From a virus (taxonomy: Duplodnaviria; Caudoviricetes), in IMG/VR virus record IMGVR_UViG_3300020043_001518, positions 1-25,209 of that record: a stretch of DNA of 25,209 nt; one strand, given 5' to 3'. Shown piece by piece: positions 13,335-25,209 of the stretch. The position numbers and the translations under genes were made by a program. The notes beneath the pieces are model-generated. The model searched no databases and was not told the origin of the DNA. It was given only the letters and a program-made list of their open reading frames with translations. Positions within the stretch are counted from its first letter, which is position 1; every line of letters starts with the position of its first letter.

Positions 13335-13759
13335 ACTTAACCGAACACTTTTCGTTAGAAGAACTGACACACACCGACCACCGCCAATTAGACAATACGC
13401 CTAATGATGCTGAACTAGAAAACCTAAAACGCCTTGCCGAATTTCTAGAAGAACTCAAAACCGTTTTGGGCGGCAAACCCATTATGGTTAATTCGGCGTT
13501 TCGTTCTAAAGCGGTTAATGATGCGGTTGGAAGTAAAGACACATCACAACATCGCATTGGTTGCGCCGCTGATATACGCGTACCTAGCATGACCCCCGAC
13601 CAAGTGGTTAAGGCGGTCATTGAATCAGGTTTAGGTTATGACCAAGTGATTCGCGAATTTGACCGTTGGACACACATTAGCATCCCTAATGAAGAAACAC
13701 GCGCACCCCGCAAACAAGCGTTGATTATTGATAAGCAAGGTACGCGTTTATATGCTTAA
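13331..13759 (+). CDS. Endolysin, peptidase M15A family
   Basis: HFSLEEL; SAFRSKAVNDAVG; SQHRIGCAAD (H-x6-D) and WTHIS zinc ligands. Confidence 0.9.
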   Translation: MNLTEHFSLEELTHTDHRQLDNTPNDAELENLKRLAEFLEELKTVLGGKPIMVNSAFRSKAVNDAVGSKDTSQHRIGCAADIRVPSMTPDQVVKAVIESGLGYDQVIREFDRWTHISIPNEETRAPRKQALIIDKQGTRLYA

Positions 13760-14061
13760 ACTTCTTTAACAAAGATGCCATCTTTAGTTAGATGACCTTT
13801 GCGGTGTTTAATTTCTTCATAAGCACCTTTAAGACACTCAACCAAATCTAAATCAGCGCAAGCGCAACCCATAATTAGCGTTACAAGAATGTCGCCGTAG
13901 GCATCTTTCATTGCGGCTACATCGTTATCTTCAATTGCTTCAAACAATTCGTTTAGTTCTTCTTGGGTTTTCATTGCTTGCGCGTAAGCCGTACTGTTTT
14001 GTACGATGCCGCGGGCTTCACCCCATTGGATAACTGCTATTTCTGTATTTGCGTAACTCAT
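13756..14061 (-). CDS. MazG-like nucleotide pyrophosphohydrolase
   Basis: KTQEELNEL...DAYGDILVTL...AYEEIKHRKG...FVK, all-alpha NTP-PPase motif. Confidence 0.85.
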   Translation of the reverse strand: MSYANTEIAVIQWGEARGIVQNSTAYAQAMKTQEELNELFEAIEDNDVAAMKDAYGDILVTLIMGCACADLDLVECLKGAYEEIKHRKGHLTKDGIFVKEV

Positions 14062-14619: not shown

Positions 14620-14865
14620 TCAAAAGGGAATGTCCCCCATATCATCAGGCATAGGCGCGGCTTGGCGTTGTGATGCGCGTGGTTCAAGCGGCGGTCTAGC
14701 ACTTAACCAACCATCCCAACTAACGGGGATGTGGTCGATTTTCAAACTAATACCTTGTTGCCCTTTATCCCAAAGCGTACCAATTTTAGAAAAGCGTTTT
14801 TTGTTGTTGCCTTGGGCATCGGTGTATTCGCCGACTACAGCAATCAAATCTAGTTTAGTTGACAT
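14620..14865 (-). CDS. Small SSB-like protein
   Basis: 81 aa beta-rich with acidic DDMGDIPF C-terminal tail typical of SSBs; downstream of exo/ERF. Confidence 0.65.
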   Translation of the reverse strand: MSTKLDLIAVVGEYTDAQGNNKKRFSKIGTLWDKGQQGISLKIDHIPVSWDGWLSARPPLEPRASQRQAAPMPDDMGDIPF

Positions 14866-15487
14866 GGTTCAATCTTTCATTAAGTTTAAAAATTTTTGCA
14901 TCAAGTTCGGCTAAGAACTTTGTTACTTCTTCTTCAAGCATTGCCGCGTATTCCGTATCGAATTCAACGCGTTTAACAAATAGTTGTAACCCGTTTGGTA
15001 GGCGTGGGTCAAACGATACGAAATCACACCAAGCGCGTTTAGTACAAATCATTTGCCATTGCATTTGGGTTATGTACTTTGTTGGCACTTGTTCACTAAT
15101 CAAGGTATCAATGTGCGTAGCGGTGTTAGGGCATTTGATTTCTAACAAACCATCAGCACCTACCAAGCCATCAGGCGAAGCCCCTGCGCGTTCAATTGAT
15201 GGGTGGGCAATGTACCCTACTTCATCGACCAATACATCGGCATACGATTCATACGCGGCACGGGCAAGCGGTTCGGTTTCTGTACCCCATTGCATAGCCG
15301 CATTGCTATACGATTCTGCAACCGTGTTGGTCATGCGTTCGCAAATCAATTGCGCCATGTAATTTTCGCGTGATGCTGAATAACCGCTTTTGGTTTTGGC
15401 GATTACATCAGCAACGCGGGATGCCGTGACATTACCCAAGCGGGCGGCAAACCATTCAGGTGTACCTTGTTCAACCTTTTCAATCAT
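14855..15487 (-). CDS. YqaJ / lambda-exonuclease family 5'-3' exonuclease
   Basis: QGTPEWFAARLG-VTAS, WGTETEP, GASPDGL, LEIKCP, QMQWQM motifs. Confidence 0.92.
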   Translation of the reverse strand: MIEKVEQGTPEWFAARLGNVTASRVADVIAKTKSGYSASRENYMAQLICERMTNTVAESYSNAAMQWGTETEPLARAAYESYADVLVDEVGYIAHPSIERAGASPDGLVGADGLLEIKCPNTATHIDTLISEQVPTKYITQMQWQMICTKRAWCDFVSFDPRLPNGLQLFVKRVEFDTEYAAMLEEEVTKFLAELDAKIFKLNERLNHVN

Positions 15488-16032
15488 AGTTTTGCCTTTG
15501 CTTTATCTTTGGCGGCAATCACTTTCTTTTGCCAATCAGAATTACCGTTACAAGCGGCATACGCGGCTTTGTAGGCGTTCTTTAAACCATCTTGGTCGGT
15601 TGATGCGTCAATAGCCGCCAAGTGGTCTATAAGGGCGCTTTCATCTACATTTTTTGCAGGGATAGTTGCTAACGCGCCATCGTCATCTTCAGGTGCAATA
15701 CCGCAAGCCGCCATTAACGAACCGCGGCGGGCGTAGGTTAATGCTGACATATACGCGGGCGGGTCATTCTTAACAACAGGAAATTGCAAAACGCCACAAT
15801 TAATTGTTTCGCCTGATTCATGTATAAAGATTGTTTCGACCATTACGCCGCCAACACATTCACGGGTTTTTTGCACAAGGGCAATACCGTTATTGTTTAG
15901 CGCGTCTATAACTGCTTCAACACACGCGGAAAGGTCGGCATACTTATTCTTGAAATGCGGGTTATAGGCGTTCTTTAAAGCGGGTGCAAATGCCTTTTGT
16001 GCTTGCACCAATGCCGTGGCAATTTGTTTCAT
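15484..16032 (-). CDS. erf: ERF-family single-strand annealing protein
   Basis: NPHFKNKYADL, HESGE, SALTYARR, GIAPEDDDG motifs. Confidence 0.92.
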   Translation of the reverse strand: MKQIATALVQAQKAFAPALKNAYNPHFKNKYADLSACVEAVIDALNNNGIALVQKTRECVGGVMVETIFIHESGETINCGVLQFPVVKNDPPAYMSALTYARRGSLMAACGIAPEDDDGALATIPAKNVDESALIDHLAAIDASTDQDGLKNAYKAAYAACNGNSDWQKKVIAAKDKAKAKL

Positions 16033-16220
16033 TCTGCATTTTCCAAGTAGTTGGTTAATCGTTTAATTCGGTCGGCGTGGTAATCGCTCATGCGCTTGGC
16101 GTATTCCATGCCGCTTTGAGCATCAAGAAAACGGCGCTTGGCTTCTTCTAATTCTTTTGCCGCCATTTCTTTGGGCGATGGCATTTGCCACAGGGATTGG
16201 AATCGTTCTAAAAAGTTCAT
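16029..16220 (-). CDS. Hypothetical 63 aa coiled-coil protein
   Basis: MNFLERFQSLWQMPSPKEMAAKELEEAKRR...; conserved in the inverted copy at 24969. Confidence 0.75.
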   Translation of the reverse strand: MNFLERFQSLWQMPSPKEMAAKELEEAKRRFLDAQSGMEYAKRMSDYHADRIKRLTNYLENAE

Positions 16221-16222
16221 GC

Positions 16223-16315
16223 TTAACCCCGCCAAGCCAACAGTACACCCCAACCACCAAAGATGATGATTGCCAAAGTACATTCAATTAAAGTGGTGAT
16301 AATTTTTTGTTTCAT
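16223..16315 (-). CDS. 30 aa single-TM peptide
   Basis: MKQKIITTLIECTLAIIIFGGWGVLLAWRG*; AAGGA RBS; 5 of 6 differences to the copy at 24874 are synonymous. Confidence 0.75.
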   Translation of the reverse strand: MKQKIITTLIECTLAIIIFGGWGVLLAWRG

Positions 16316-16327
16316 TTTGTTTTGTCC

Positions 16328-16468
16328 TTAGATAACCCAAATGTCAATGCCAGTAGATTTTGGATATTTAGCCAAAATTTCTTTTTCCAATTCGTAACGA
16401 CCAACAGCCCAAATTTGTTCAGAGTGTTGTTTGTAATTGCAAAAAAAACTAATGCCATAAAGTTTCAT
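16328..16468 (-). CDS. 46 aa hypothetical protein (insertable cassette)
   Basis: MKLYGISFFCNYKQHSEQIWAVGRYELEKEILAKYPKSTGIDIWVI*; AAGGA RBS; flanked by 20-bp direct repeat. Confidence 0.7.
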   Translation of the reverse strand: MKLYGISFFCNYKQHSEQIWAVGRYELEKEILAKYPKSTGIDIWVI

Positions 16469-16486
16469 TTTGTATTGTCCTTTGAT

Positions 16487-16502
16487 GGGGGCTTGCGCCC
16501 CC
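16487..16502. other. GC hairpin (minus strand GGGGGC-GCAA-GCCCCC)
   Basis: Perfect 6-bp stem with GNRA loop on minus strand just after a stop codon; sister copy at 17514-17527. Confidence 0.6.
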
Positions 16503-16509
16503 GTTTGGT

Positions 16510-16671
16510 TTAGATTGATTTTTTGAAGGTGCGCAACATGGCTTTGTATTCTTTTGAATCAGGGGTCATGTTGGAATAAATTACGTTGCCGTTTGTGTCT
16601 AAACGCATCATGCAAGTGAACGCGCCATAAACTACAAAGCCTGAAGATGTTTTGATTACTGAACGTGTCAT
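16510..16671 (-). CDS. 53 aa hypothetical protein (cassette 1)
   Basis: MTRSVIKTSSGFVVYGAFTCMMRLDTNGNVIYSNMTPDSKEYKAMLRTFKKSI*; directly under repeat R1; conserved in copy at 24671. Confidence 0.75.
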   Translation of the reverse strand: MTRSVIKTSSGFVVYGAFTCMMRLDTNGNVIYSNMTPDSKEYKAMLRTFKKSI

Positions 16672-16679
16672 TTTGGTTT

Positions 16680-16781
16680 CTTTCTAAAAGACCCTAGAAG
16701 TTAGGGCATGGGTTGAATTATAAGCCAACTAATACCTACGTCAATACTTTTTTAAAATATTTTTGTAGGTATTTTCCCTAG
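16680..16781 (-). repeat. Regulatory repeat R1 (box + promoter + operator + leader hairpin + RBS)
   Basis: Minus strand TTGACG(16744-39)-16bp-TATAAT(16722-17); TATAAG-CCAA-CTAATA 16719-16734; hairpin 16691-16707; TAGG-N7-CCTA 16766-16780. Confidence 0.85.
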
Positions 16782-16787
16782 TATGTT

Positions 16788-17030
16788 TTATCCCAACAAC
16801 GCCGCCAAATGTTCGGGCGTACCCTCACGGTACACACCGCCAACAAACGCGTAGTAACGAACACCCTTGGCGTTAATCAATACACCAACTGCGGGGTGCA
16901 AATCTGTACGGGGTGTGAACTTAGCAACCTTGGCGGCTTGTGCGGCATTGGCTTTGGCAAAGCGCATTTCGCTTGCATCGCGTTCGTTGCGTTTTGTTTC
17001 GATTACTTGTTTGAGTGTTGCGTTTGTCAT
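16788..17030 (-). CDS. 80 aa hypothetical protein (cassette 2)
   Basis: MTNATLKQVIETKRNE...; start directly downstream of repeat R2 GAAAG RBS. Confidence 0.75.
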   Translation of the reverse strand: MTNATLKQVIETKRNERDASEMRFAKANAAQAAKVAKFTPRTDLHPAVGVLINAKGVRYYAFVGGVYREGTPEHLAALLG

Positions 17031-17039
17031 TTGCTTTGC

Positions 17040-17131
17040 TTTCTAAAAGACCGCAAGATGTTTGCGGCATGGGTGAATTATAAGCCAACTAATATGCGTG
17101 TCAACAATTATTTTGTAGGTACTTTCCCTAG
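17040..17131 (-). repeat. Regulatory repeat R2
   Basis: Perfect TTGACA(17104-099)-16bp-TATAAT(17082-77); palindrome 17079-17094; hairpin 17050-17068; TAGG-N7-CCTA 17116-17130. Confidence 0.85.
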
Positions 17132-17139
17132 TGTGTGTT

Positions 17140-17400
17140 TTATGCAAATTTCTTGATAAACGCGTTCAACTTGCGAACCTGACCAACTGCCCATTTGTAT
17201 TGTTCTTCACCGTTTTCGCCAATGTAATCTTCATTGTTTAAATGGCCATCTTCATGGAAGCAACTAAGAACATACTTTGCTTCATGCACGATTTCGGCAT
17301 TGGTGTAATCGGTAACTTGCTTGTTGTCATCGCGGGCAATTTGCTGAAGGGTGTTAGCCAATTCATCGATTGCCATTGCTGATTTGAGAATTGCGGTCAT
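17140..17400 (-). CDS. 86 aa hypothetical protein (cassette 3)
   Basis: MTAILKSAMAIDELAN...; ATG at 17400 follows GAAAGG RBS of R3. Confidence 0.75.
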   Translation of the reverse strand: MTAILKSAMAIDELANTLQQIARDDNKQVTDYTNAEIVHEAKYVLSCFHEDGHLNNEDYIGENGEEQYKWAVGQVRKLNAFIKKFA

Positions 17401-17410
17401 TTGCTTTGCC

Positions 17411-17511
17411 TTTCTATAAGACCCCAAGAAGTTTGGGGCATGGTGTAATTATAAGCCAACTAATATACAGGTCAACACTTTTTTTAAATTATTTTCTAAG
17501 TAGTTTCCCTA
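17411..17511 (-). repeat. Regulatory repeat R3
   Basis: TTGACC(17475-70)-16bp-TATAAT(17453-48); palindrome 17450-17465; hairpin 17421-17439; TAAG-N7-CCTA 17497-17511. Confidence 0.85.
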
Positions 17512-17513
17512 AT

Positions 17514-17527
17514 GGGGCTTGCGCCCC
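17514..17527. other. GC hairpin (minus strand GGGGC-GCAA-GCCCC); possible plus-strand terminator
   Basis: 5-bp stem, GNRA loop on minus strand; followed by GTTTTT on plus strand. Confidence 0.55.
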
Positions 17528-17531
17528 GTTT

Positions 17532-17792
17532 TTATCTTTTGCTATCGCCCCAACCAGTTTCTTGCAATACGCGAAGGTCAGGGGTCAGGCGCACACGGTT
17601 GCCAAGTTCATCCCAACCCCAAGCGATTGCATCTGTAACAACCCTAATTTGGCGAACTTGATTTGTTTTAAACAATGTGTGGCTAGACGGAACGCAAGCA
17701 GCTAAATTAGTAAGTGAATTGGTTTTAGCAGTAGCCAAAAAATCAATCATTACCATGTGTTGTTTGGCTGTAAGTTTTGTGTATTTAGACAT
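17532..17792 (-). CDS. 86 aa hypothetical protein (cassette 4)
   Basis: MSKYTKLTAKQHMVMIDFL...; under repeat R4. Confidence 0.75.
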   Translation of the reverse strand: MSKYTKLTAKQHMVMIDFLATAKTNSLTNLAACVPSSHTLFKTNQVRQIRVVTDAIAWGWDELGNRVRLTPDLRVLQETGWGDSKR

Positions 17793-17800
17793 TTGATTAC

Positions 17801-17905
17801 TTTCTTTAAGACCCCGTGCGATTTGCTAGGGCATGGGTGAATTATAAGCCACCTTATACCCATGTCAACACTTTTTTAAAAATATTTTCTAGGTATTTAC
17901 ACCTA
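17801..17905 (-). repeat. Regulatory repeat R4
   Basis: Perfect TTGACA(17868-63)-16bp-TATAAT(17846-41); perfect palindrome TATAAG-CCAC-CTTATA 17843-17858; hairpin 17811-17832; TAGG-N8-CCTA 17890-17905. Confidence 0.85.
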
Positions 17906-17916
17906 TACAACAACCC

Positions 17917-17934
17917 TATAAGTTGGCTTATAAT
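17917..17934 (+). promoter_or_regulatory. Operator palindrome overlapping -10 of cro-like gene
   Basis: TATAAG-TTGG-CTTATA (17917-17932) with TATAAT at 17929-17934, 5 nt before ATG 17940. Confidence 0.75.
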
Positions 17935-17939
17935 AAGGT

Positions 17940-18092
17940 ATGACTAAACAAGAATTGTTAACCAAGGTACGCAATCAGACCGAATTAGCGCAAATATTGG
18001 GTATCAACCAATCGGCAATTAGCCAATGGAAAGAAATACCCAAGGCGCGACTTTGGCAATTGAAGGTACTAAAACCCGAATGGTTCAAATGA
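17940..18092 (+). CDS. cro: Cro-like helix-turn-helix regulator (50 aa)
   Basis: MTKQELLTKVRNQTELAQILGINQSAISQWKEIPKARLWQLKVLKPEWFK*; QTELAQILGINQSAISQW HTH; not in ORF track. Confidence 0.85.
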   Translation: MTKQELLTKVRNQTELAQILGINQSAISQWKEIPKARLWQLKVLKPEWFK

Positions 18093-18286
18093 CTAAGATA
18101 GAAAAATACCTACATCACAAATCTTTGATGATGGAACACCTTGGTTTTGCGTATGCGAATCAATCGATGGATAATTCTTTGTATCACCTGATTTGCTATC
18201 ACTTTCACAAGGATTACACGCAGGGTTACTATTATTTTATGACCCATGAAGAACGCAAAGATTTGCACACAATGATGATTCTTTGA
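18089..18286 (+). CDS. Hypothetical 65 aa His/Tyr-rich protein
   Basis: ATGA-coupled to cro stop: MTKIEKYLHHKSLMMEHL... Confidence 0.55.
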   Translation: MTKIEKYLHHKSLMMEHLGFAYANQSMDNSLYHLICYHFHKDYTQGYYYFMTHEERKDLHTMMIL

Positions 18287-18292
18287 TACAAT
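18263..18292 (+). promoter_or_regulatory. Candidate promoter for replication gene leader
   Basis: TTGCAC (18263-68), 18 bp, TGa-TACAAT extended -10 (18284-92). Confidence 0.5.
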
Positions 18293-18297
18293 TTTTT

Positions 18298-18390
18298 GAA
18301 ACACGGCTAGGTTGGGAGTTGCTACCCAACCGAAAAGGATTCCCACTTTTTCCCTGCCGCCGTTTCTTTTAAGTGGTTTTTGTAAGTGGA
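18298..18390 (+). ncRNA. Candidate structured 5' leader RNA of replication initiator
   Basis: GAAAC/GTTTC and CGGC/GCCG closing stems, GGTTGGG/CCCAACC hairpin, loop CCACTT complementary to two downstream AAGTGG. Confidence 0.55.
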
Positions 18391-18395
18391 AAAAA

Positions 18396-19115
18396 ATGCA
18401 CTATTACCAGTTTCACATTGGTGACTACATAAGTCACACAAGGCATCTTTCTTTGATGGAAGATTTAGCCTATCGGCGCTTGCTTGATTTTTATTTCTTG
18501 CATGAACAACCGATAAAACATCGTGATGCCGCCCGACAAATTGGGATGCGCGAACATGAAGAAGATGTTATGACGGTGTTAAACGAATTCTTTATTTCTA
18601 CCGAAGATGGGTTTGTTAATCCCCGTGCAGATAAAGAAATAAAACAGTACAAAGAATTTGCCGAAGCGGGAAAGCGTGGGGCGGCTAAAAGGTGGGGAAC
18701 ACCCCCAAATGGGGAGGCTAATAGCCCCCCTAATGCTACCCCAATAGCAACCAATAACCATAAACCACTAACCACTAACCATAAACCAAATAAAGAAAAA
18801 TCAACTAGCGTTGATTGCCCACCTGATGTTGACCAACAAATTTGGGATGATTGGAAACAGTTACGCAAAGCCAAAAAAGCGCCCGTTACTGAAACCGTGG
18901 TTAACAGCGCAAGAAAAGAAGCCGCCAAAGCAAACATGGCGTTTAGCGATTTTCTAACCGTTTGGTGCGCTAGGGGTTCGCAGGGGCTACAAGCGGAATG
19001 GCTTAAACCTGAAGAACGAAATTTAAGCAAAACAGGTCAAATGAACCAAAGGGTAATTTCAGGCTTAACCCGTGGGCTAATCGGAGGTGGCAATGTCAAA
19101 TTACTTGGAAACTGA
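18396..19115 (+). CDS. Replication initiator, DUF1376/YdaU family
   Basis: MHYYQFHIGDYISHTRHLSLMEDLAYRRLLDFYF N-terminus; NPRADKEI; C-terminal WDDWKQLRKAKKAPVT domain. Confidence 0.85.
   Translation: MHYYQFHIGDYISHTRHLSLMEDLAYRRLLDFYFLHEQPIKHRDAARQIGMREHEEDVMTVLNEFFISTEDGFVNPRADKEIKQYKEFAEAGKRGAAKRWGTPPNGEANSPPNATPIATNNHKPLTTNHKPNKEKSTSVDCPPDVDQQIWDDWKQLRKAKKAPVTETVVNSARKEAAKANMAFSDFLTVWCARGSQGLQAEWLKPEERNLSKTGQMNQRVISGLTRGLIGGGNVKLLGN
18749..18793 (+). repeat. 7-bp tandem repeats (AACCAnT-like) within initiator gene, candidate origin
   Basis: aaccaat-aaccata-aaccact-aaccact-aaccata-aaccaaa in the linker region, as for lambdoid intragenic origins. Confidence 0.55.
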
Positions 19116-19488
19116 TTTCTGTACACAAGACGAAGGTCTTGACTACATCTTTGCTCGAATGATGGCGATATTTGGAACACCATTTAATCGTCACTTTGAC
19201 GGCATAGACCCAGAGTTTGTCAGACAAGAATGGAAAGGCCAACTAGGACGATTCCTGACATACAGACCAAGCATGGACTTTGCCATTGCCAAACTTGATG
19301 GTGAATTTATACCTAGCGCAATTAAGTTTCGTAATCTGTGCAATCAAGGCCCGCAAATCCCAATCAAGCCATTGGTTCAAATTGAACGCAAAAAAACATT
19401 GCACGAACAAATTGAAGCCGACAAGGTGAAAGCCGAAGCCTTGGCAAAGTTAGCCGAACTTAAAAAACAATTTGGGGCTAAAGCATGA
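19093..19488 (+). CDS. Putative helicase loader / replication partner
   Basis: GGAGGT RBS, ATG 19093; FIPSAIKFRNLC motif resembles lambda P-like proteins; follows initiator. Confidence 0.55.
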   Translation: MSNYLETDFCTQDEGLDYIFARMMAIFGTPFNRHFDGIDPEFVRQEWKGQLGRFLTYRPSMDFAIAKLDGEFIPSAIKFRNLCNQGPQIPIKPLVQIERKKTLHEQIEADKVKAEALAKLAELKKQFGAKA

Positions 19489-19718
19489 AAGACCTATTTG
19501 GTGATGAAGAATTCAATTGGGAAAAAGAATGGCAAGGTATGCCTGAATTTATCCAAGATGATTTATCTGAAATTCATAGCATTACAGTTCATTTTTTAAC
19601 AACAGAAGATATGTTGAAATTTTCTGAATTGATTGGCAAAAACATTACATTCACAACAAAAAGTGTTTTATTTCCAGTAACCAAAACAGAAAAAAAGGTG
19701 TGGAAAGATGAATCCTAA
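19485..19718 (+). CDS. Small acidic protein coupled to glycosyltransferase
   Basis: EWQGMPEF...ITVHF..EDMLKFSELIG..IT..TKSVLFP; overlaps both neighbours. Confidence 0.65.
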   Translation: MKDLFGDEEFNWEKEWQGMPEFIQDDLSEIHSITVHFLTTEDMLKFSELIGKNITFTTKSVLFPVTKTEKKVWKDES

Positions 19719-20568
19719 ACACCCCGTTTACATTGTTTCTAAAGGTAGGTGGGAATCAAGGTTTACAAGTAAAGCCTTTGAAGAAATGCAAGTTCCTTAC
19801 TTTATTGTTGTTGAGGAACAAGAGTACAAACAATATGCTTCAGTCATTGCGGCAGAAAAAATTTTGATTCTTGATAAACAATATTTGCTTGATTACGATA
19901 CTTGCGACACGTTGGGTAATTCTTTGGGCGTAGGGCCTGGCGCGGCACGAAACTTCTGTTGGCAACACTCAATTTCAATTGGTGCATCTTGGCATTGGGT
20001 ACTTGATGACAACATTGATGGGTTTTGCCGCCTTAATCGTAATGAAAGACACAAAGTTACTTCAGGTACTATTTTCCGAATTGCAGAAGATTTTGTAGAA
20101 CGATATGAAAATGTTTCGCAAGCGGGATTTGAGTACAGATTTTTTGCGGGTGGTAGCAGAAGAAAAAAACCCGCTTTTCGCCTTAACACGCGCATTTACT
20201 CTTGCATCTTAAACAGAAACGATGTTCCCTACCGTTGGCGCGGAAGGTACAACGAAGATACGGATTTGTCTTTAAGAATGTTGAAAGATGGTTGGTGTAC
20301 CGTTTTGTTTCAATGTTTTTTGCAAAACAAAGCCGCAACGCAAACTATTAAAGGTGGTAATACAGCGGAGTTTTATGAAAAAGAAGGAACACTACCAAAA
20401 TCGCAAATGTTGGTAAATTTGCACCCTGATATATCAAGGTTGGCGTTTAGATATAACAGACACCATCACCATGTTGACTACAGCGTTTTTCAAAAAAATC
20501 AATTAGTTAAAAAAGATGGAATCATTATTCCTGATGGTGTAAATAACTACGGAATGATTTTGGTATGA
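19708..20568 (+). CDS. GREB1-like / TET-associated (TAGT) GT-A glycosyltransferase
   Basis: YIVSKGR, GAARN, WVLDDNI, YSCIL, RYNEDTDL, KGGNT motifs. Confidence 0.8.
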   Translation: MNPKHPVYIVSKGRWESRFTSKAFEEMQVPYFIVVEEQEYKQYASVIAAEKILILDKQYLLDYDTCDTLGNSLGVGPGAARNFCWQHSISIGASWHWVLDDNIDGFCRLNRNERHKVTSGTIFRIAEDFVERYENVSQAGFEYRFFAGGSRRKKPAFRLNTRIYSCILNRNDVPYRWRGRYNEDTDLSLRMLKDGWCTVLFQCFLQNKAATQTIKGGNTAEFYEKEGTLPKSQMLVNLHPDISRLAFRYNRHHHHVDYSVFQKNQLVKKDGIIIPDGVNNYGMILV

Positions 20569-20687
20569 CATACGAAATAGCAATGCGAATTTTGGACAGG
20601 GTGCGGGATGGGGTTACTTACCCGCAATGGGTCATTCTCAAAGCCTTGGAATTAACTGGCGATATTGATGGACATGGAACACTTTAA
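20565..20687 (+). CDS. 40 aa hypothetical protein
   Basis: MTYEIAMRILDRVRDGVTYPQWVILKALELTGDIDGHGTL*; ATGA coupling. Confidence 0.6.
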   Translation: MTYEIAMRILDRVRDGVTYPQWVILKALELTGDIDGHGTL

Positions 20688-20880
20688 AGATTGCGAAGCG
20701 CGGGAATGGGTTGCGCGTTTCCGCAAAAAGCAATTGGAAGAAGGTAGGGGCGAAGCAATCGAATGGTGGAACAAAATAATTAAAGACATTGCAAGCAAAC
20801 GCGGACAAGCCGCCGCTGATGAATTAAAGCAAAGAATGAATACAGTAAAGGATAAAAATGCGATACGCCGCAAGGGTTGA
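20668..20880 (+). CDS. Hypothetical protein
   Basis: EHFKDCEAREWVARF...RGQAAADELK; coupled operon gene. Confidence 0.65.
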   Translation: MDMEHFKDCEAREWVARFRKKQLEEGRGEAIEWWNKIIKDIASKRGQAAADELKQRMNTVKDKNAIRRKG

Positions 20881-21121
20881 TGCAAACCAAACACAAATTG
20901 TTAGTGCCTTACGCGCCGCGGGTGCATCGGTATGGATTATTAGCCTACCCGTTGACTTGTTGGTTGGCTATCACGGTCACACATTCTTGGTGGAAATTAA
21001 AAGCACCAATAAAGCCCGTTTAACGGGGCTACAAGCCGACTTCTTTGAAACTTGGCACGGTGGGACACTTTGCCGCATTGACAGCCCTGAAGCCGCGCTA
21101 CGGATGATAGGGGTAATTTGA
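20858..21121 (+). CDS. VRR-NUC / PD-(D/E)XK nuclease-like protein
   Basis: RVDANQ..IV.ALR, PVDLLVG, LVEIK, LT..Q..F motifs. Confidence 0.75.
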   Translation: MRYAARVDANQTQIVSALRAAGASVWIISLPVDLLVGYHGHTFLVEIKSTNKARLTGLQADFFETWHGGTLCRIDSPEAALRMIGVI

Positions 21122-21453
21122 TGAACCCACCTTACAAAACAGTAGATTTCATTTTAGAAAACGCGCCAAGGTATGCCAAGGCTAAAGCCGAACGAATCTA
21201 CCTTGAAGAATTCCGTAAAACCAAAAAGGCGTTGCTGATGAAAGTAGCAATGGAAGCGGGATACGAAAGCGCGGCGGCACAGGAACGCGAAGCCTACGCG
21301 CACCCTGATTACCAAGTTTTGTTAAAAGGTTTAGCAGAAGCAATCGAAGAAGAAGAAACCCTAAAGTGGAAATTGACCGCCGCGACCATTAAGGGGGAAA
21401 TATGGCGCACCGAATCGGCTAATGAACGAAGTGGCGTAAAAGCAACGGAATAA
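21121..21453 (+). CDS. Hypothetical coiled-coil protein
   Basis: 110 aa helical ORF (YAKAKAERIYLEEFRK...QEREAYAHPDY). Confidence 0.7.
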   Translation: MNPPYKTVDFILENAPRYAKAKAERIYLEEFRKTKKALLMKVAMEAGYESAAAQEREAYAHPDYQVLLKGLAEAIEEEETLKWKLTAATIKGEIWRTESANERSGVKATE

Positions 21454-21461
21454 CCACATAC

Positions 21462-21532
21462 TTGCGTAGGATATATAAGCCCGCTTATACTGCATCCATG
21501 CCGTTACATTACGGTCTAAACGAAAGCGCAAA
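21462..21532 (+). promoter_or_regulatory. Fifth, rightward copy of the promoter/operator/leader unit
   Basis: TTGCGT(21462)-18bp-TATACT(21486); TATAAG-CCCG-CTTATA 21474-21489; ccATGCCGT-tacatt-ACGGTCT..GAAAG leader. Confidence 0.75.
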
Positions 21533-21739
21533 ATGAAACACGCATCAACTAAGAAAAACCACCTTGTCATCATGTTGGATGAATTCAACAATGTTTGGAT
21601 TGATAAAACCGTTCCCGCCACAGAATTGCAATGTATTCGTTATGTTTGTCATCGCAATTGGACGCACGCCATTGCCAAAGGCACAGTAAAAATTGTTACC
21701 TTGGCGCAATTTGCAGAACTCAACAAGGTGGCGGCATGA
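21533..21739 (+). CDS. 68 aa hypothetical protein
   Basis: First gene after fifth promoter unit. Confidence 0.7.
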   Translation: MKHASTKKNHLVIMLDEFNNVWIDKTVPATELQCIRYVCHRNWTHAIAKGTVKIVTLAQFAELNKVAA

Positions 21740-21831
21740 ACTGGCCTTTTCCACCTTTCCCTAATCCAAAAGACAAGGGAACACGCGTTCCCCGTTTTAA
21801 CCCTGATAACTTTGAAGATGCACCGTTATGA
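21736..21831 (+). CDS. 31 aa Pro-rich peptide
   Basis: [31 protein letters not shown]; ATGA overlaps at both ends. Confidence 0.6.
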
Positions 21832-22073
21832 ACGATTACGAATTTACCTTTAACGCCACAACAGGCGCGGCGGGAGAAACCGTTACTTGCCTTATGTCGT
21901 ATGAACGCGATGAACATGGCGCGTATTTTGAGAATATTGAAACCGTAAAATACGAAGGGGTAGAGGTCACGGGGTTGATTTCGGAAGAACAATTTTCTGA
22001 ATTGGAAATGGTCGGCGTTAACAAATTGCGTGAACACTTAGCCGAAGAAAAAGACAGGGCGCAAGAACTATGA
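21828..22073 (+). CDS. Acidic hypothetical protein
   Basis: 81 aa, Glu-rich; coupled. Confidence 0.65.
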
Positions 22074-22159
22074 GCAATAAAGCAATTTATGCAATATTGT
22101 TTGCGATGCTGATTGCCTTTTGGGGTTGGGTAATTTTTATAACAAAGGGCGTAATATGA
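22070..22159 (+). CDS. 29 aa single-TM peptide
   Basis: [29 protein letters not shown]; ATGA overlaps at both ends. Confidence 0.55.
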
Positions 22160-22347
22160 TGCCGCAACTAGATATGGGCGCTAACTTTTCAACCAACAAA
22201 TTTAAGTTATGCACCAAATGCGAAACCGCTAAACCGCCTGAAGGCGGCATAGAAATGGGAACAAAGTGGATTTGCCAAACTTGTTGGAATAAGCGAATCA
22301 CAGGTAAAAACCTACAACAAAACCGCAAAAATGCGAAAAAGAACTAA
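22156..22347 (+). CDS. Small zinc-finger protein
   Basis: CTKC...WICQTC. Confidence 0.65.
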   Translation: MMPQLDMGANFSTNKFKLCTKCETAKPPEGGIEMGTKWICQTCWNKRITGKNLQQNRKNAKKN

Positions 22348-22792
22348 GCGCAAGATTTGGGCGTTGTTAGACCCAATAGCCCATAGCATTGTTGGGGCAT
22401 CTTACACACCGCGGCAAACTTTGGACAAACTGCGGCTAACCGAATATGCCGCTTTGGAATCAATCATTAAGGGCGTTGGCACAATACAAGATTGGCGCAC
22501 CCTTGTTGATTTGCTTAATCTAGCGGAAATGTTTGCGCGTAACAACATCGGAAAAGATGAAGTGTTACCCGTATGCCAAAAAGCGCAAGATGCCTTGCAC
22601 AAAGCCGCTATACGCTACCAAGAAACAATGCGCATAGGATTAGACGGTGTTGGCATCCAAGCCATCAGGGATTTAATCGAATATGCTGATTTGCAACAGG
22701 GAAGCGTAACCCGTGCTGAATTTGAACGCTTGGTACAAAAAACCCGCGATTACATCAAATCAAACGGCAACCTAGTGGTTGAAATTGAATGA
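22331..22792 (+). CDS. Hypothetical protein
   Basis: 153 aa helical ORF in nin-like operon. Confidence 0.7.
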   Translation: MRKRTKRKIWALLDPIAHSIVGASYTPRQTLDKLRLTEYAALESIIKGVGTIQDWRTLVDLLNLAEMFARNNIGKDEVLPVCQKAQDALHKAAIRYQETMRIGLDGVGIQAIRDLIEYADLQQGSVTRAEFERLVQKTRDYIKSNGNLVVEIE

Positions 22793-23118
22793 GATTCCCC
22801 AAACACCAATACATCCGTAGCCAAACCCTTTTGCGCAACGCCCGCGAAATACCATGCCAACATTGCGGCGCTAATGATGGTACGGTAATAGCCGCACACA
22901 CAAATTGGCAAGGCGGGAAAGGTCGGGGCATCAAAGCGGATGACAACCTAATTGCAAGTTTATGCTATTCATGTCACATGGAAATCGACCAAGGCGGCAA
23001 ATTGGATAAAGCCGAACGCCAAAAGATATGGCTTGCCGCACATTTGCAAACGGTGCGAAAATTACAGGAATTGGGCTTATGGCCTACCGATGTTCCACTA
23101 CCTGAAGGGTTAATATGA
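22789..23118 (+). CDS. DUF1364/YbcO-like His-Me finger nuclease-like protein
   Basis: PCQHCG...AAH...GRGIKADD...LCYSCHMEID. Confidence 0.7.
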   Translation: MRFPKHQYIRSQTLLRNAREIPCQHCGANDGTVIAAHTNWQGGKGRGIKADDNLIASLCYSCHMEIDQGGKLDKAERQKIWLAAHLQTVRKLQELGLWPTDVPLPEGLI

Positions 23119-23507
23119 AATTCCGTGCCGAAGCCGTACAAACCGACCCCGTAATGCAGTTTGTTCAATGCCTACTGCATAGCGTTACCAATGCGCACAT
23201 TCTGCATTTCCAAAGCCTAAGTTATTCACAGCACATGGCATTGGGTGCTTATTACGATGAAGTAAGCGATTTAGTAGATGGGTTTGTAGAAGCGTTCCAA
23301 GGTAAGTACGGGCTATTGACCAACTACAAAGCCGATTACGAACTGCCTGATAGCAACCCCGTTGTTTACCTAACCTACCTGAAAGATGAAGTGGCAACCC
23401 TGCGCCGTATGCCTAAGTTCCCCCAAGATAGTGAACTGCAAAACGAAGTAGATACCATTGCCAACCTAATCAATAGCACCCTATACAAACTGCGATTCCT
23501 AGCCTAA
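23115..23507 (+). CDS. Ferritin/Dps-like four-helix protein (DUF5856-like)
   Basis: AHILHF..SYSQHMAL..YYDEVSDLVDGFVEAFQG...STLYKLRFL. Confidence 0.7.
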   Translation: MKFRAEAVQTDPVMQFVQCLLHSVTNAHILHFQSLSYSQHMALGAYYDEVSDLVDGFVEAFQGKYGLLTNYKADYELPDSNPVVYLTYLKDEVATLRRMPKFPQDSELQNEVDTIANLINSTLYKLRFLA

Positions 23508-24656: not shown

Positions 24657-24670
24657 TACGAAAGACTTAA

Positions 24671-24832
24671 ATGACACGTTTAGTTATCAAAACATCTTCA
24701 GGCTTTGTAGTTTATGGCGCGTTCACTTGCATGATGCGTTTAGACACAAACGGCAACGTAATTTATTCCAACATGACACCCGATTCAAAAGAATTCAAAG
24801 CCATGTTGCGCACCTTCAAAAAATCAATCTAA
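24671..24832 (+). CDS. Homologue of 16510-16671
   Basis: MTRLVIKTSSGFVVYGAF...KSI*; 5 nt differences by manual alignment. Confidence 0.7.
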   Translation: MTRLVIKTSSGFVVYGAFTCMMRLDTNGNVIYSNMTPDSKEFKAMLRTFKKSI

Positions 24833-24873
24833 ACCAAACGGGGGCTTAGTCCCCCATCAAAGGACAAAACAAA

Positions 24874-24966
24874 ATGAAACAAAAAATCATCACAACTTTA
24901 ATTGAATGTGCTTTGGCAATCATCATTTTTGGTGGTTGGGGCGTACTGTTGGCTTGGAGGGGTTAA
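24874..24966 (+). CDS. Homologue of 16223-16315 (30 aa TM peptide)
   Basis: MKQKIITTLIECALAIIIFGGWGVLLAWRG*. Confidence 0.7.
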   Translation: MKQKIITTLIECALAIIIFGGWGVLLAWRG

Positions 24967-24968
24967 GC

Positions 24969-25160
24969 ATGAACTTTATTAACCGTGTTCAATCCCTGTG
25001 GCAATTGCCATCACCCAAAGAAATGGCGGCTAAAGAACTTGAAGAAGCCAAGCGCCGTTTTCTTGATGCTCAAAGCGGCATGGAATACGCCAAGCGCATG
25101 AGCGATTACCACGCCGACCGAATCAAACGCCTAACCAATTATTTAGAAAGCGCAGAATGA
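24969..25160 (+). CDS. Homologue of 16029-16220
   Basis: MNFINRVQSLWQLPSPKEMAAKELEEAKRR... Confidence 0.7.
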   Translation: MNFINRVQSLWQLPSPKEMAAKELEEAKRRFLDAQSGMEYAKRMSDYHADRIKRLTNYLESAE

Positions 25161-25209
25161 AACAAATTGCTACGGCATTGGTGCAAGCACAAAAGGCTTT
25201 TGCACCTGC
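25157..25209 (+). CDS. erf: Second ERF gene, N-terminal fragment (3' truncated)
   Basis: MKQIATALVQAQKAFAP identical in protein to 16032 gene with synonymous changes. Confidence 0.8.
   Translation, partial: MKQIATALVQAQKAFAP

Follow-up and report, generated by a model that had tools for sequence, protein, structure and literature searches.

The virus record IMGVR_UViG_3300020043_001518 (Duplodnaviria; Caudoviricetes) is a partial genome of 25.2 kb; the whole stretch of 25,209 nucleotides was analysed and is called the window here. In its left early arm, between cro and the gene of an ERF-family annealing protein and in a lambda-like layout, four promoter-bearing repeats alternate with four small genes. 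These repeats are probably copies of the leftward early promoter unit of the phage, which its Cro protein likely shuts, and the exchange of genes among relatives most likely proceeds through general homologous recombination within the core that the operator forms with the -10 box. An earlier note on this DNA had described four repeats of about 100 bp alternating with unrelated open reading frames (ORFs) of 53-86 aa, and this arrangement is confirmed. It mentioned neither the divergent P22-type cro gene facing the first repeat nor the Cro-type operator in every copy. Given this operator, the array constitutes a regulon, likely to be turned off again.

Promoter repeats and the predicted Cro operator

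The four repeats (R1 to R4) lie on the minus strand with start-to-start distances of 360, 371 and 393 nt. Their mean column identity is 76%, pairwise values range from 71 to 80% over 107-119 columns, and the longest exact stretches measure 14-22 nt. The same elements follow one another in all copies, as previously noted: a TAGG-N7/8-C(C/T)TA box, an A/T tract, the -35 and -10 hexamers, a leader hairpin, GAAAG and ATG. Minor deviations occur in R2, whose box terminates in CTTA, and in R3, whose A/T tract is 10 nt shorter. The pattern TTGAC-N17-TATAAT (hexamer spacer 16) is present exactly four times in the window against 0.04 expected, and each repeat is predicted to be a strong sigma-70 promoter. 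R1 and the cro promoter form a divergent pair, in which R1 points leftward; no gene lies between R1 and cro.

17793..17905, minus strand: R1, primary leftward promoter unit; box 17890-17905, -35 17868-17863, operator 17843-17858, -10 17846-17841, predicted +1 17834, hairpin 17832-17811, then the ribosome-binding site
17401..17511, minus strand: R2; box 17497-17511, -35 17475-17470, operator 17450-17465, predicted +1 17441, hairpin 17439-17421
17031..17130, minus strand: R3, short form, box nearer by one helical turn; box 17116-17130, -35 17104-17099, operator 17079-17094, predicted +1 17070, hairpin 17068-17050
16672..16780, minus strand: R4; box 16766-16780, -35 16744-16739, operator 16719-16734, predicted +1 16709, hairpin 16707-16691
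21470..21532, plus strand: diverged fifth copy in the right arm, ahead of a 68-aa ORF; operator 21474-21489, hairpin, GAAAG; profile E 2.6e-6
17917..17934, plus strand: rightward (cro) promoter; operator palindrome 17917-17932 overlaps TATAAT 17929-17934; no canonical -35
17940..18092, plus strand: cro, 50-aa P22-type Cro helix-turn-helix (HTH) protein; PF14549 P22_Cro 36.5 bits (cut-off 30.2); best PDB sequence match P22 Cro 1rzs

The operator pattern TATWAG-N4-CTTATA has six sites in the window against 0.13 expected. They are the -10 regions of R1-R4, of the cro promoter and of the diverged fifth unit, and none was found elsewhere in the window. The sites cluster likewise in 5/5 near-complete relatives, the reversed control giving 0. 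An unbiased palindrome search near cro and further left landed mostly on the two -10 regions, with a mean of 30.2 over 135 arms against 23.1 +/- 2.2 over 40 shuffled arms. Residue 1 of the recognition helix goes with the operator: Arg is accompanied by a TGT half-site in 12/15 helix types and Gln in 0/8 (Fisher p 3e-4), 25 of the 44 helix types having passed the score filter. Internal copies have their own genome's operator variant in L009, L015, L024, L034 and L116. The near-complete relatives possess a single HTH gene per genome (5/5); an additional weak HTH_3 row in relatives sits in an 1180-aa frame containing a stop. These patterns suggest that Cro is likely the repressor of all repeat promoters. 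The cro mRNA itself is predicted to be leaderless, because the ATG lies only 5 nt past TATAAT (17929-17942), in an identical register in 30/30 close arms.

Relatives also contain further operator-like sites beyond the right arm (L132:9950-10000, G002 36462, G005 3991, G001 14592). The one in L132 stands before the gene that follows the endonuclease pair, so that the packaging region may also be under Cro control. In L095, L097, L119, L005 and L223, an extra segment of box plus operator is present between the cro promoter and R1.

The leader hairpin begins 2 nt past the predicted +1. In a sample of 20 hand-picked leaders of one geometry, 95.7% of the cells are paired with 12 double-sided changes, a result found in 0/500 shuffles. 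Among the 62 repeats of the close relatives described below, the predicted start is located 8 nt past the operator (59/62), the hairpin measures 17-22 nt, and 18-20 nt separate it from the start codon (56/62). A paired 5' end is a textbook means of slowing 5'-dependent decay. RppH requires unpaired 5' ends, according to the accessible part of the source (PMC3997798), and the hairpin most simply protects the 5' end of the mRNA.

The TAGG box stands 33 nt (12 repeats) or 42-43 nt (47 repeats) from the -10 box in the 62 close repeats, and at 21-22, 32-34 or 42-44 nt in 44/44 distant units with a box. These distances of about 22, 33 and 43 nt are whole helical turns (10-11-nt steps), which points to a protein needing to face RNA polymerase. 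The box is likely a site for an activator, probably from the host. It occurs with both helix types (48/73 Gln and 13/49 Arg arms), and the protein there is likely other than Cro. The box pattern is also found at four coding-region places in the window. A literature search, whose coverage left out most subscription papers and supplements, returned no description of this repeat or of the TAGG box.

Gene exchange at the repeats

The genes behind the repeats are called cargo here. They and the linkers that accompany them are as follows.

17532..17792, minus strand: cargo c1 (family F7), 86 aa, no named family, in 6/25 complete arms
17140..17400, minus strand: cargo c2 (family F6), 86 aa, all-helical model with pLDDT 97
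16788..17030, minus strand: cargo c3 (family F5), 80 aa; model with pLDDT 89, a long helix plus a small beta domain
16510..16671, minus strand: cargo c4 (family F14), 53 aa, last-slot gene, last in 3/3 arms
16469..16509, minus strand: promoter-less second linker, G5/C5 hairpin plus AAGGACAA ribosome site; closes the last slot
17511..17530, plus strand: G/C hairpin past c1, terminator-like on the opposite (+) strand only; moves with the upstream gene

A terminator pattern scan called none on the coding strand within the array. Five collection scans returned relatives, giving 72 loci with a Cro at least 80% identical, the window included. These correspond to 31 distinct arms, of which 25 extend to ERF and are complete, with Cro at least 82% identical and arm lengths of 656-2787 nt; the six partial arms were excluded from the counts. 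The complete arms comprise 62 repeats, with 1, 2, 3, 4 and 5 repeats in 6, 7, 7, 4 and 1 arms, respectively. They contain 16 cargo families directly behind a repeat, 35 junction types and 23 distinct arrays; relatives thus do not all carry the same four genes in the same order, and the array of the window was found in no other arm. The Spearman correlation between cro similarity and cargo is 0.03. Among 12 pairs with cro at least 97% identical in DNA, the array is identical in 0/12, and 4/12 have no cargo in common. In an independent 1385-nt contig (X1 record 4), cro-R1 and R2-c2-R3-c3-R4 are matched at about 98%, and 217 other letters replace c1. A further independent contig (X3 record 18) has the order cro-R-c3-R. 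Because of these two contigs, the c2-c3 order of the window is independently supported, and the opposite order also exists.

The position of the exchange was addressed by a segment test, in which 37 internal repeats were divided into six segments. A breakpoint profile from global alignments had been dropped for its high baseline, and the segment test was used instead. Repeats with a common upstream gene resemble each other in the segments 5' of the -35 box (0.73/0.76 vs -0.02/0.47, p 0.002). In the segments 3' of the -10 box, resemblance goes with a common cargo gene (0.69/0.56 vs 0.43/0.36, p 0.002). Overall, the three segments 5' of the spacer go with the preceding gene and the two 3' of the -10 box with the cargo, and the operator/-10 core is uniformly alike across the internal repeats (0.84-0.89). 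Since half-repeats travel with their flanking genes and the core is alike in all, the exchange point is placed in this core; the segment pattern is the one that crossovers there leave. The gain, loss and swapping of promoter-plus-gene units that the earlier note had proposed is borne out by the 25 arms, the independent contigs and the segment test, with junctions that lie within the repeat; cargo breakpoints do coincide with the repeats.

The order of the genes is mostly conserved. Only one of the 17 gene pairs seen in at least two arrays conflicts in order, c2/c3 vs c3/c2, against 5.2 conflicts expected if the last slot is held fixed (p 0.0008) and 11.3 with free order. The earlier note had proposed an integron-like array without an integrase, whose units are gained, lost or swapped by the neighbouring recombinase. 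As a dedicated system, it would have ERF and YqaJ excise, re-insert and reorder cassettes. Such a system has little probability here, as order is far better kept than free re-insertion predicts. ERF/YqaJ does adjoin the array, one true order swap exists, and Erf proteins tolerate divergence (PMC3945230, as far as its text was accessible), all of which would suit a shuffling device. However, ERF/YqaJ occupies the same place in arms with one or no detectable promoter, which is also where recombination genes usually stand in lambdoid left arms, and promoter-less linkers swap genes too. The region therefore exhibits gain, loss and replacement rather than integron-like reordering, since order is mostly kept and short ribosome-site linkers also exchange genes.

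Several observations weigh against exchange at Cro-controlled promoter repeats. Counted over whole arms, 83/285 alignment ends fall inside repeats against 25.7% expected, which is not significant (p 0.10), whereas counts up to the last repeat give 79/152 against 35.8% (p 3e-5). Many ends are situated at ribosome-site linkers or within the genes F2 and F7. The repeats are not the sole exchange points that had been supposed, as 20 junction types lack a promoter repeat; these use the hairpin-plus-ribosome-site linker closing the last slot, or very short ribosome-site repeats. The linker type at 16469-16509 is common to last-slot cargo in relatives, and c3 in the window seems to end in a microhomology join to a flank normally found after F13. 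The region is thus modular at several kinds of linker, among which the promoter repeat is the largest. Duplicated cargo, which unequal crossover should sometimes yield, was found in 0/23 arrays. The arms are metagenome assemblies, in which repeats can produce chimeras. With respect to the operator, cro and its promoters are physically linked, and their covariation can partly be shared descent; the Q/R label changes eight times on a quick ERF tree, of which well-supported branches force only two. L016, the right-arm copy of L039 and L015/L018 deviate from the simple rule relating helix and operator. As the anchor CTTATAAT covers part of the right half-site, conservation of the latter in 62/62 repeats is given by construction, and the free result is the left half-site TAT[A/T]AG, kept in 62/62 repeats.

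Some of these points would fit another history, in which the repeats are merely co-regulated promoters and the arrays differ by stepwise deletion of a longer ancestor, illegitimate joins and assembly chimeras. Near-constant gene order, the microhomology-type join at the end of c3 and the end of the window, itself a probable chimera, all speak in its favor. This history is nevertheless improbable in view of the half-repeats, which segregate with the flanking genes and switch in the core. Furthermore, 16 families share at most five slots, with first-slot and last-slot genes being mutually exclusive, and c1 is cleanly replaced in an independent contig.

Exchange in the operator/-10 core remains the preferred reading, and the following course may be envisaged. 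Upon entry of the DNA, the host sigma-70 RNA polymerase would start at every unit, and Cro, made from its divergent leaderless promoter, would then repress all units together as well as itself. Selection for the operator would retain about 20 nt of near-identity per copy inside some 110 nt of 70-80% identity, and a recombinase of the relaxed annealing type could work with such a length. Units would be deleted, added or replaced, mostly without a change of order, by crossovers between the genomes of co-infecting phages or by loop-out within a single genome. The hairpin would guard the 5' end of the mRNA, the TAGG box would probably bind a host activator, and the cargo would consist of accessory early host-interaction proteins. 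ERF with YqaJ would be the likeliest catalyst, because Erf/Exo of phage D3, according to the available part of the report, is as efficient as lambda Red on repeats that are 78% identical (PMC3945230). These proteins would serve the whole genome and not be dedicated to the array. They are in the same place in the single-promoter arms (6/25 close arms) and likewise in 99 distant arms, 76/99 of which have 0-1 detectable repeats, the sensitivity of the profile falling with distance.

Cargo genes and their possible functions

The cargo ORFs are mutually unrelated, the profiles of c2 and c3 comparing at 1% probability. Synonymous and non-synonymous single-base codon differences amount to 62:21, 98:6, 139:27 and 8:2 in the 86-, 86-, 80- and 53-aa ORFs, respectively; because these counts indicate purifying selection, the ORFs are considered real genes. 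They had been called orphans, which holds in so far as no named family was matched in Pfam, PHROGs or NCBIfam, with a single sub-threshold NCBIfam row for c2. The term does not suit c2 and c3, which have 94 and 119 close homologue clusters; a profile search with c2 gave 199 representatives at 50% clustering. c3 is present in 9/25 arms, and in seven of these the promoter-less partner gene F8, absent from the window, comes next. Internal mosaic breakpoints are found in cargo F2 (L002:143-769 region) and F7, and N-terminal codons are swapped in several cargo genes.

Structure models were made for c2, which has five helices, and for c3. Foldseek searches with c2 in PDB and BFVD gave no match at E<=0.001, and the best viral rows were uncharacterised proteins. 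The best VIA-align match of c2, to YqeY (Z 6.6, rmsd 3.5, 75 aligned), is in the ordinary range for helical bundles. No fold match was found for c3 in PDB, and ESM Atlas contained no usable match for c1 or c3. A role of the cargo as DNA mimics was rejected, as c2 is mildly acidic (14 D/E, 9 K/R) and the other cargo proteins are basic.

The c2 family is also a domain of a 5132-aa protein, where it stands immediately ahead of an AAA_34 (Strawberry-notch-like) helicase. Polyvalent proteins have been proposed to act early in invasion, and their domains are also found solo (PMC5512222, in the text accessible); the 5132-aa architecture resembles such early-conflict proteins and gives a hint in this direction, with one of 149 new proteins among the matches listed providing the link. 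A second hint of a conflict role comes from P0333, a fusion protein that combines the c2 family with another cargo family, F13 (39% over 79 aa, E 7e-15). Pfam gave a single sub-threshold DUF4313 match on 18 longer c2-family proteins. In P0215-P0217, the c2 domain occurs in proteins of 198-406 aa made of small domains linked by repeated RKANP/RKTNP. F13 (L036:1647-2033, plus strand) has 129 aa and belongs to PHROG 3754 of unknown function; its DCGVRA ... HHF pattern presumably resembles that of a Cys-His peptidase, for which it is a candidate.

The promoter geometry recalls the acr-aca operons. According to the available part of a recent report (bioRxiv 10.64898/2026.07.27.740549), acr-aca promoters have an inverted repeat over the promoter with the start about 10 nt downstream, and a hairpin of about 20 nt right after the start that ends about 20 nt before the start codon. 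As with Aca1 and Aca2, the array has a putative operator over the promoter, a hairpin directly past the predicted start, a fixed distance to the start codon, and one HTH protein that would control several adjacent units of small genes without known function. It differs in that the predicted regulator, a P22-type Cro, belongs to the divergent replication operon and is not an Aca in the acr operon, and in that its units are tandem repeats acting as exchange points. No known acr gene was matched here in Pfam, PHROGs names, NCBIfam or PADLOC.

An Aca-like counter-defence regulon, in which Cro binds both operator DNA and the 5' RNA hairpin and the cargo, refreshed at the repeat, inhibits host defence, could be considered on these grounds. 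It is compatible with gene exchange between copies of a Cro-controlled promoter, to which it adds RNA binding and a cargo function. The dimensions of the promoter given above (8 nt in 59/62, 17-22 nt, 18-20 nt in 56/62) fit the acr-aca description, and the helicase-bearing, polyvalent-like protein and the fusion to F13 agree with it. In contrast, the HTH protein matches P22 Cro and is encoded outside the cargo operons, facing replication genes. The base of the hairpin occurs with both helix types (40/44 Gln and 18/34 Arg arms) and, unlike the operator, does not follow the Cro helix. PADLOC matched 0/19 cargo proteins, no named family was found in Pfam, PHROGs or NCBIfam, and the polyvalent link concerns the one protein in 149 already mentioned. 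The regulon in this extended form is rather doubtful. The anti-defence role that the earlier note assigned to the cargo has indirect support from the c2 domain beside a helicase and the acr-aca-like layout, and lacks a named-family or PADLOC match. A wider proposal appears slightly less probable still, namely that a lytic lineage made the Cro operator both an off-switch and a recombination hotspot, that each early accessory gene moves as a plug-in cassette with Aca-like control at both DNA and RNA level, that these cassettes circulate mainly among phages with matching Cro, and that the at least 16 unannotated families represent a counter-defence catalogue.

Related systems and the surrounding genome

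Integron cassettes are promoter-less and read from one upstream promoter, and integrons employ an integrase and attC-type sites. The array shares with them variable sets of small unrelated genes between repeated sites; it differs in that no integrase was found, each unit has a promoter consensus of its own and order is mostly conserved. The generally known gene layout of the lambdoid PL/PR region is recognized: the promoters diverge, cro and next to it an O-like/DUF1376 replication gene lie at the right, and the left arm has small genes followed by an annealing protein and an exonuclease. In lambdoid phages, left-arm mosaicism via Rad52-like recombinases has been described (PMC3945230, in the part accessible). 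The present phages differ in that no cI and no integrase were detected in five near-complete relatives, and in that copies of the PL unit give almost every accessory gene an operator-bearing promoter of its own.

The closest parallel in function is offered by the PeSL cassettes of T4-type phages, as described in the available text of two papers (PMC2839356, PMC4122927). These too are intergenic units of about 100 bp with an AT-rich tract, a near-consensus sigma-70 promoter, a stem-loop, a Shine-Dalgarno sequence and an ATG ahead of genes without known function; a stem-loop downstream of the -10 box is one of five described positions. Insertions, deletions and replacements between relatives map to the unit, which is weaker here in the naive test of alignment ends. 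The differences concern copy number, about 50 genome-wide in T4-type phages and 1-5 in one arm of a small phage of lambdoid layout here, and the repressor-type operator tied to Cro and the phased upstream box, which are not among the PeSL features described in that text. In addition, the stem-loop here is not a consensus terminator, and the setting is not the hyperplastic region of a T4-type myovirus, the relatives being 36.5-39.2 kb in size with a cro/O-like/ERF layout. The array works like a PeSL without strictly being one, and is regarded as a PeSL-like variant whose control layout is Aca-like. In Cluster K mycobacteriophages, the SAS/ESAS repeats are located at gene starts, like the short ribosome-site linkers here, and half have inverted repeats that differ between subclusters. 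In the accessible part of their description, these sites are conserved per gene family and not tied to cassette exchange, with no sigma-70 promoter described (PMC3203893). New here are the -10 palindrome tracking the Cro helix, the covarying 5' hairpin and the box spaced in whole turns.

The array offers a base-resolved, population-scale example of promoter-mediated gene exchange outside the T4-type phages. It would explain the safe import of unknown and possibly toxic early genes, which arrive under the recipient's own repressor. With a profile of the repeat, the accessory genes that an abundant group of uncultured phages expresses first can be retrieved as candidates for host-interaction screens, and the natural series of helices and operators forms a small set on which the recognition code of Cro could be tested.

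Tail and lysis genes occupy the left of the window, followed by the leftward arm, which terminates at the endolysin, and the rightward arm, which opens with the 50-aa Cro and continues with the DUF1376/O-like replication gene. The leftward arm starts with the four repeats and c1-c4, followed by a 46-aa gene, a 30-aa hydrophobic ORF, a 63-aa ORF, ERF and YqaJ.

16328..16468, minus strand: 46-aa gene (F9), in 4/25 arms; its flanks are short ribosome-site direct repeats, not the promoter repeat
16223..16315, minus strand: 30-aa hydrophobic ORF (F1), first conserved gene past the array, in 25/25 complete arms
15484..16032, minus strand: ERF-family single-strand annealing protein; PF04404 69.9 bits; phrog_2324
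14855..15487, minus strand: YqaJ-type recombination exonuclease; PF09588 107 bits

Tyrosine integrase PF00589, serine recombinase PF00239 and S24 repressor PF00717 were found in 0/5 relatives of 97-100% estimated completeness, the PF00589 control being positive in 14/14; no tyrosine recombinase was present among the scanned ORFs of the window, itself a partial genome. Because of these results and the single HTH gene in 5/5 relatives, a lytic phage with a lambdoid layout is inferred. Named phages gave no DNA match to the array, and their best ERF matches were under 60%. The best-scoring isolate, Methylophilales phage MEP301, differs in gene order, so that it does not indicate the host. GTDB scans gave no Cro relative and scattered YqaJ matches of at most 68%. 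The best-matching public metagenome runs include lake and aquatic samples, and no RNA dataset was among the listed public runs matching the stretch.

Other genes were observed in the window. A TET-associated glycosyltransferase in the replication arm (19708-20568, plus strand, PF20691 143 bits) suggests DNA base modification. Auxiliary genes encode a DUF5856/starvation-inducible-type protein (23115-23507, plus strand) and a MazG-like pyrophosphatase (13756-14061, minus strand). A scan of 15500-22500 gave no Rfam family above its gathering score; a weak int-alpA match (18300-18376, plus strand, 28 bits and so below the gathering score of 35.8, E 0.012) lies between cro and the replication gene. 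At the end of the window (24669-25209, plus strand), an inverted second copy of c4, the 30-aa ORF, the 63-aa ORF and the start of ERF shows 92-95% identity to 15980-16673, without the 46-aa gene and without a promoter repeat. No public contig bridges the junction to this copy, and in the relative L132 another gene stands after the upstream endonuclease gene. The inverted copy is probably a chimera with a co-occurring strain.

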